Program-made: the position numbers and the translations under genes
The notes under the pieces: model-generated
Database searches by the model: none
What the model was told of the DNA's origin: nothing
What the model saw: only the letters and a program-made list of their open reading frames with translations
DNA from: Escherichia coli
GTDB taxonomy: Bacteria; Pseudomonadota; Gammaproteobacteria; Enterobacterales; Enterobacteriaceae
Length of the DNA: 64,000 nt
Direction: 5' to 3' (one strand)
Assembly: GCF_050920415.1 (NCBI RefSeq)
Contig: NZ_CP169309.1
In this document: piece after piece, positions 12,617 through 12,693 of the stretch
How the letters are laid out: each line of letters begins with the position of its first letter
Position numbering within the stretch: position 1 is the first letter of the stretch

Positions 12617-12693
12617 CGCGGGGTGGAGCAGCCTGGTAGCTCGTCGGGCTCATAACCCGAAGGTCGTCGGTTCAAATCCGGCCCCCGCAACCA
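12617..12693 (+). tRNA. metY: initiator tRNA-fMet (anticodon CAT)
   Basis: CGCGGGGTGGAGCAGCCTGGTAGCTCGTCGGGCTCATAACCCGAAGGTCGTCGGTTCAAATCCGGCCCCCGCAACCA; C1-A72 mismatch and three G-C pairs in the anticodon stem are initiator hallmarks. Confidence 0.95.

Follow-up and report, generated by a model that had tools for sequence, protein, structure and literature searches.

A difference between K-12 and B strains of Escherichia coli at position 46 of the initiator tRNA gene metY is already known and has been in print since 1992, the year in which Mandal and RajBhandary reportedly described G46 in the metY gene of E. coli B. K-12 carries A46 in metY (tRNA-fMet2) and G46 in metZ, metW and metV (tRNA-fMet1), and E. 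coli B carries G46 in metY (Kapoor et al., PMC3017606). The same distribution of A46 and G46 over the four genes is repeated for K strains in PMC8887418, and a 2026 preprint, in which K-12, B, C, W, Crooks and Nissle 1917 were aligned, found A46 in K-12 metY alone and termed G46 canonical (bioRxiv 10.64898/2026.04.16.719103). A statement on position 46 was also sought in PMC5393177, and none was found there. In K-12, metZ, metW and metV, whose product carries m7G46, are clustered together between mltA and amiC as three genes, whereas the gene described here is solitary and lies upstream of rimP-nusA-infB. It was found in a stretch of E. coli DNA of 64,000 nucleotides, called the window in what follows, and a previous reading made from the letters alone had singled it out for the base at position 46.

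The metY gene and its surroundings

The window contains a 77-nt initiator tRNA-Met(CAT) gene at 12617-12693 (+), at the metY locus. ARAGORN calls tRNA-Met(cat) with exactly these limits on this strand and with the anticodon at position 35, and the same segment matches the Rfam tRNA family (RF00005) with 61.4 bits against a gathering score of 29. The minimum-free-energy fold of the metY strand is a cloverleaf, and the CCA end is encoded in the gene. Together with the CAU anticodon and the canonical cloverleaf, three features typify the molecule as an initiator. First, there is a C1 x A72 mismatch, gene position 1 being C and gene position 73 (canonical 72) being A; this pair is non-canonical in the Rfam tRNA alignment and remains unpaired in the metY fold. 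Second, the D-stem (GAGC/GCTC) places a purine at position 11 opposite a pyrimidine at position 24, as A11:T24, and an A11:U24 pair is characteristic of initiator tRNAs. Third, the anticodon stem, TCGGG/CCCGA around the loop CTCATAA, contains at its bottom three consecutive G:C pairs (G29-G31 with C39-C41), the importance of which in the initiator anticodon stem has been described (PMC3017606).

Canonical position 46, in the variable loop, corresponds to gene position 47, because the 9-nt D-loop carries the extra residue 17a, and it falls at 12663 (+) in the window. The window has G at this place, against A in K-12 metY. The variable-loop string quoted in the sequence-only reading, CCCGAAGGTCGTCGG, is found at 12656-12670. 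Alignment to the genes of K-12 MG1655 (NC_000913.3; metY at 3318213-3318289, metZ, metW and metV at 2947387-2947683) shows 77 of 77 positions identical to metZ, metW and metV, G46 included, and a single mismatch to metY, G versus A at 12663. The gene is thus of the tRNA-fMet1 type, defined by G46, and not of the tRNA-fMet2 type, defined by A46. The earlier reading, which had assigned the G46 form to this gene and had taken K-12 to carry A46 in metY and G46 in metZWV, is borne out by the aligned MG1655 genes and by the literature; it had named a G in K-12 metY as the observation that would overturn it, and MG1655 metY has an A. Its statement that E. coli B has G46 in metY agrees with BL21(DE3), a B strain, in which the metY gene is G46 like that of the window and all initiator genes encode tRNA-fMet1.

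The order of the genes is argG, metY, the rimP leader and rimP, and the flanks are collinear with those of K-12 and of strain MFDS1022581, the nearest genome, in which a tRNA-Met is annotated at the same place. A single initiator gene is therefore found directly upstream of rimP-nusA-infB and divergent from argG, the upstream neighbour (10926-12269, minus strand, coordinates taken from the annotation of MFDS1022581 and K-12). The gene is conserved and its neighbourhood syntenic, so that a chance match at 12617-12693 need not be considered. Downstream, the rimP leader lies at 12782-12882 (+), where it matches Rfam RF01770 with 102 bits (gathering score 47), and a scan for terminator-like structures placed two hairpins within it, at 12815-12838 and 12863-12875. 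The first protein gene of the rimP-nusA-infB operon, rimP, follows at 12900-13352 (+), with coordinates from K-12 and MFDS1022581; it begins with a TTG start codon, and the first codons read TTG TCC ACA TTA GAG, giving MSTLE.

A consensus scan returned two promoter-like sites in front of the gene. The upstream one, at 12495-12524 (+), consists of TTGACA and TATAAT with an 18-nt spacer by the count of the tool and is a perfect match to the sigma-70 consensus (12 of 12 positions), about 95 nt upstream of metY. It presumably serves as one of the promoters that we take to drive the metY-nusA-infB operon. Both of its hexamers are kept in K-12, with one single-nucleotide polymorphism (SNP) at 12493, two bases ahead of the first of them. 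The other site, a putative promoter at 12572-12601 (+), reads TTTGCA and TAGAAT with an 18-nt spacer (9 of 12 consensus positions) and ends 16 nt upstream of the first base of metY.

The orthologous argG-metY-rimP locus of K-12 shares these promoter-like sites and the rimP leader with the window. Besides A46, the one difference inside the gene, the K-12 flanks show 11 more SNPs relative to the window in the 696 nt around metY; 10 of them are upstream, and the downstream flank is identical for about 270 nt. BL21(DE3) has metY flanks of the phylogroup-A, K-12-like haplotype with a C>T change at the position equivalent to 12708, and the flanking haplotype of the window is a different one.

Position 46 within E. 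coli and beyond

The alleles were counted with metY-specific queries short enough for one mismatch to lower the identity below 99%, and the base of all counts is the 5,425 complete RefSeq E. coli genomes with a match. Queries of 421 and 96 nt proved too sensitive to SNPs in the flanks and were shortened to 66 nt and then to 54 nt. With the 96-nt query (12640-12735), 4,649 genomes matched the G46 version exactly and 365 the A46 version, which left 411 genomes matching neither. Eight of these, BL21(DE3) among them, were sampled, and all eight carried G46 together with a C>T change at 12708 or 12709. These two positions lie 15-16 nt downstream of metY, and the change there accounts for the majority of inexact hits with the 96-nt query.

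With the 66-nt query (12640-12705), exact G46 matches rose to 5,045 genomes and exact A46 matches stayed at 365, so G46 is present at metY in at least 5,045 of the 5,425 genomes (about 93%), O157:H7, Nissle 1917 and the type strain of E. coli among them. Some other variant in the 66-nt stretch was seen in 15 of the 5,425, none of which has the exact A46 3' half. In all 365 carriers the A46 66-mer was found at one place per genome, under an E-value limit that passes exact matches only. The 54-nt query, which lies wholly inside the tRNA, again gave 365 genomes with exact A46; as this count equals that of the 66-mer, no further genome has the exact A46 3' half in any copy of an initiator tRNA gene. 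As to the number of copies, E. coli genomes have from 1 to 8 initiator-tRNA gene places, with a median of 4; several strains, among them J53, ME8067, OW1E2 and GF4, show only 2 each, and 4 such places in the E. coli genome collection are on plasmids. Strain IR53017 (NZ_CP064103.1) gave no match to the metY-specific flank.

The carriers of A46 were examined by name and by haplotype. The 120 carriers listed, of the 365, all have laboratory K-12 names or K-12-sized genomes: MG1655, W3110-type strains, DH5alpha, DH10B, DH1, C600, J53 and HB101 are included, as are MC4100, XL1-Blue, EMG2, NBRC 3301 and O16:H48 mouse-gut isolates. Five carriers with natural-looking sources were compared with MG1655 over 33.3 kb around metY. 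The number of SNPs was 2 in USML2 (oil palm), 4 in SF10 (duck), 0 in EC06 (human gut), 2 in THB42-F4 (dog; described in its record as a transconjugant) and 1 in YZ22MPE54 (pork), against 191 for BL21(DE3) in the same comparison. A wild, non-K-12 origin of the oil palm, duck, pork, dog and human-gut strains was rejected on these grounds. With 0-4 SNPs to MG1655 in all five, A46 travels with the K-12 haplotype, to which it is restricted wherever this was checked (120 carriers by name and five over 33.3 kb).

Across species, the A46 version of the tRNA, searched as an exact pattern, gave 0 matches in 100,044 species-representative genomes; the scan needs the exact surrounding tRNA sequence and is silent on species with diverged initiator tRNAs. 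The positive control was a pattern that allows R at position 46 and requires the rimP-leader hairpin 107-137 nt downstream. It recovered 109 metY-type loci from Enterobacterales, and all 109 have G. Their genera include Citrobacter, Enterobacter, Klebsiella, Pectobacterium, Erwinia and Rouxiella, and the loci also cover Salmonella enterica subsp. arizonae and diarizonae as well as Escherichia whittamii. The lack of A46 among the representatives and the uniform G of the control loci indicate, by parsimony, that G46 is the ancestral state and A46 the derived one.

Origin and expected effect of G46

The metY of the window is therefore almost certainly an E. coli gene of non-K-12 type, located upstream of rimP-nusA-infB and encoding tRNA-fMet1, with a G46 that is ancestral and near-universal. 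An opposite polarity would make A46 the original base, from which a G46 metY was derived by gene conversion from metZWV, so that G46 would be an informative lineage marker. The flanks of K-12 and BL21(DE3) lend themselves to such a scheme, in that they are of the same haplotype and differ within 696 nt only at 12663 and 12708, and between these two strains a single-base change is formally possible in either direction. The distribution of the alleles decides against it: at least 5,045 of the 5,425 E. coli genomes have G46 at metY, O157:H7, Nissle 1917 and the type strain among them, as do all 109 metY-type loci from other Enterobacterales species; A46 is unmatched outside E. coli, and the five carriers tested over 33.3 kb are all of the K-12 haplotype. 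Gene conversion from metZWV as the source of G46 was rejected on the outgroup evidence, and we regard it as highly improbable. An error of sequencing or assembly at 12663, for instance a collapse of reads from a true A46 metY onto metZWV, has a negligible probability. Four near-identical initiator tRNA genes can in principle confuse a short-read assembly, but the unique sequence on either side of metY is unbroken and keeps the order seen in K-12 and in the nearest complete genomes. Two independent complete genomes, MFDS1022581 and N96, also match the window at 100% over 12480-12900, G46 included, and 93% of complete genomes have G46.

On the scale of 5,425 complete E. coli genomes and 100,044 species representatives, tRNA-fMet2, the A46 form of the initiator, seems to be a derived allele private to the K-12 lineage, a reading that we consider probable. 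If it is right, any physiological role proposed for the upkeep of two isoforms would hold for K-12 alone, the textbook claim of two initiator tRNA species in E. coli would describe K-12 only, and the window would represent the norm of the species. The mildly new reading thus concerns K-12, and there is nothing novel in the window's own metY, in which G46 is a correct but ordinary observation.

The G46 of the window tRNA would be methylated to m7G46 by TrmB, as may be expected from the m7G46 of tRNA-fMet1 (PMC3017606, PMC8887418), and m7G46 would then play its usual part in the tertiary contact between variable loop and D-stem. The strain would have one initiator tRNA species, against two in K-12, if its metZWV genes, which are outside the window, also carry G46. 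No functional peculiarity of the window metY is expected, and the small functional consequence foreseen in the sequence-only reading was judged appropriate.

The same reading had taken G46 as a lineage marker pointing to a non-K-12 background. The background is indeed not K-12, the window being about 95-97.5% identical to K-12, but the base identifies no particular lineage, being the ancestral norm: with G46 ancestral, and with A46 confined to the K-12 haplotype wherever this was checked, G46 does no more than exclude K-12. It also matters little for the window, whose non-K-12 origin is already evident from a divergence of about 3% and from structural differences.

The window relative to K-12 and to its nearest genomes

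The identity of about 95-97.5% holds over most of the sequence that can be compared with K-12, and there are several structural differences. The segment at 57763-61554, equivalent to the K-12 yhaB/yhaC/tdcR/tdcA region, is only 86.6% identical to K-12 and may have been recombined or be highly variable. About 2.3 kb at 44542-46836 are absent from K-12, which has the agaW and agaA pseudogenes at that place; the window seems to carry there an undeleted aga (N-acetylgalactosamine) cluster. Conversely, the window lacks the yraHIJK fimbrial operon region, which in K-12 takes up about 5.5 kb (3286994-3292478); at this gap, the agaI and rsmI sides are separated by only about 98 unmatched bases (38515-38612).

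Over positions 1-25000, an identity of at least 99% to the window is reached by only 13 of the 5,425 complete genomes, and the window stems from a sparsely sampled lineage. The best matches for this part are MFDS1022581, from animal-source food in South Korea (100.0%), and N96, from a Tibetan pig (99.8%); both are 100% identical to the window over 12480-12900, where they too have G46.

A 2,121-bp element of the IS21 family (8039-10159) interrupts the phosphoethanolamine-transferase gene yhbX of the window and is accompanied by a target duplication of about 7 bp. The two fragments of the gene are found at 7132-8052 and 10187-10918, and the element contains an IstA-like open reading frame (8139-9185) and an IstB open reading frame (9307-10104). 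Near-identical copies of it are annotated by RefSeq as ISEc62 family. At the yhbX site, the element was found in no complete RefSeq E. coli genome, the best coverage being 92%. MFDS1022581 is without the insertion; apart from that, it matches the first 25 kb of the window at 100%, with no mismatch up to 8038, and it has a 99.8% identical copy of the element elsewhere in its genome. The insertion in yhbX looks like a recent, strain-private event.
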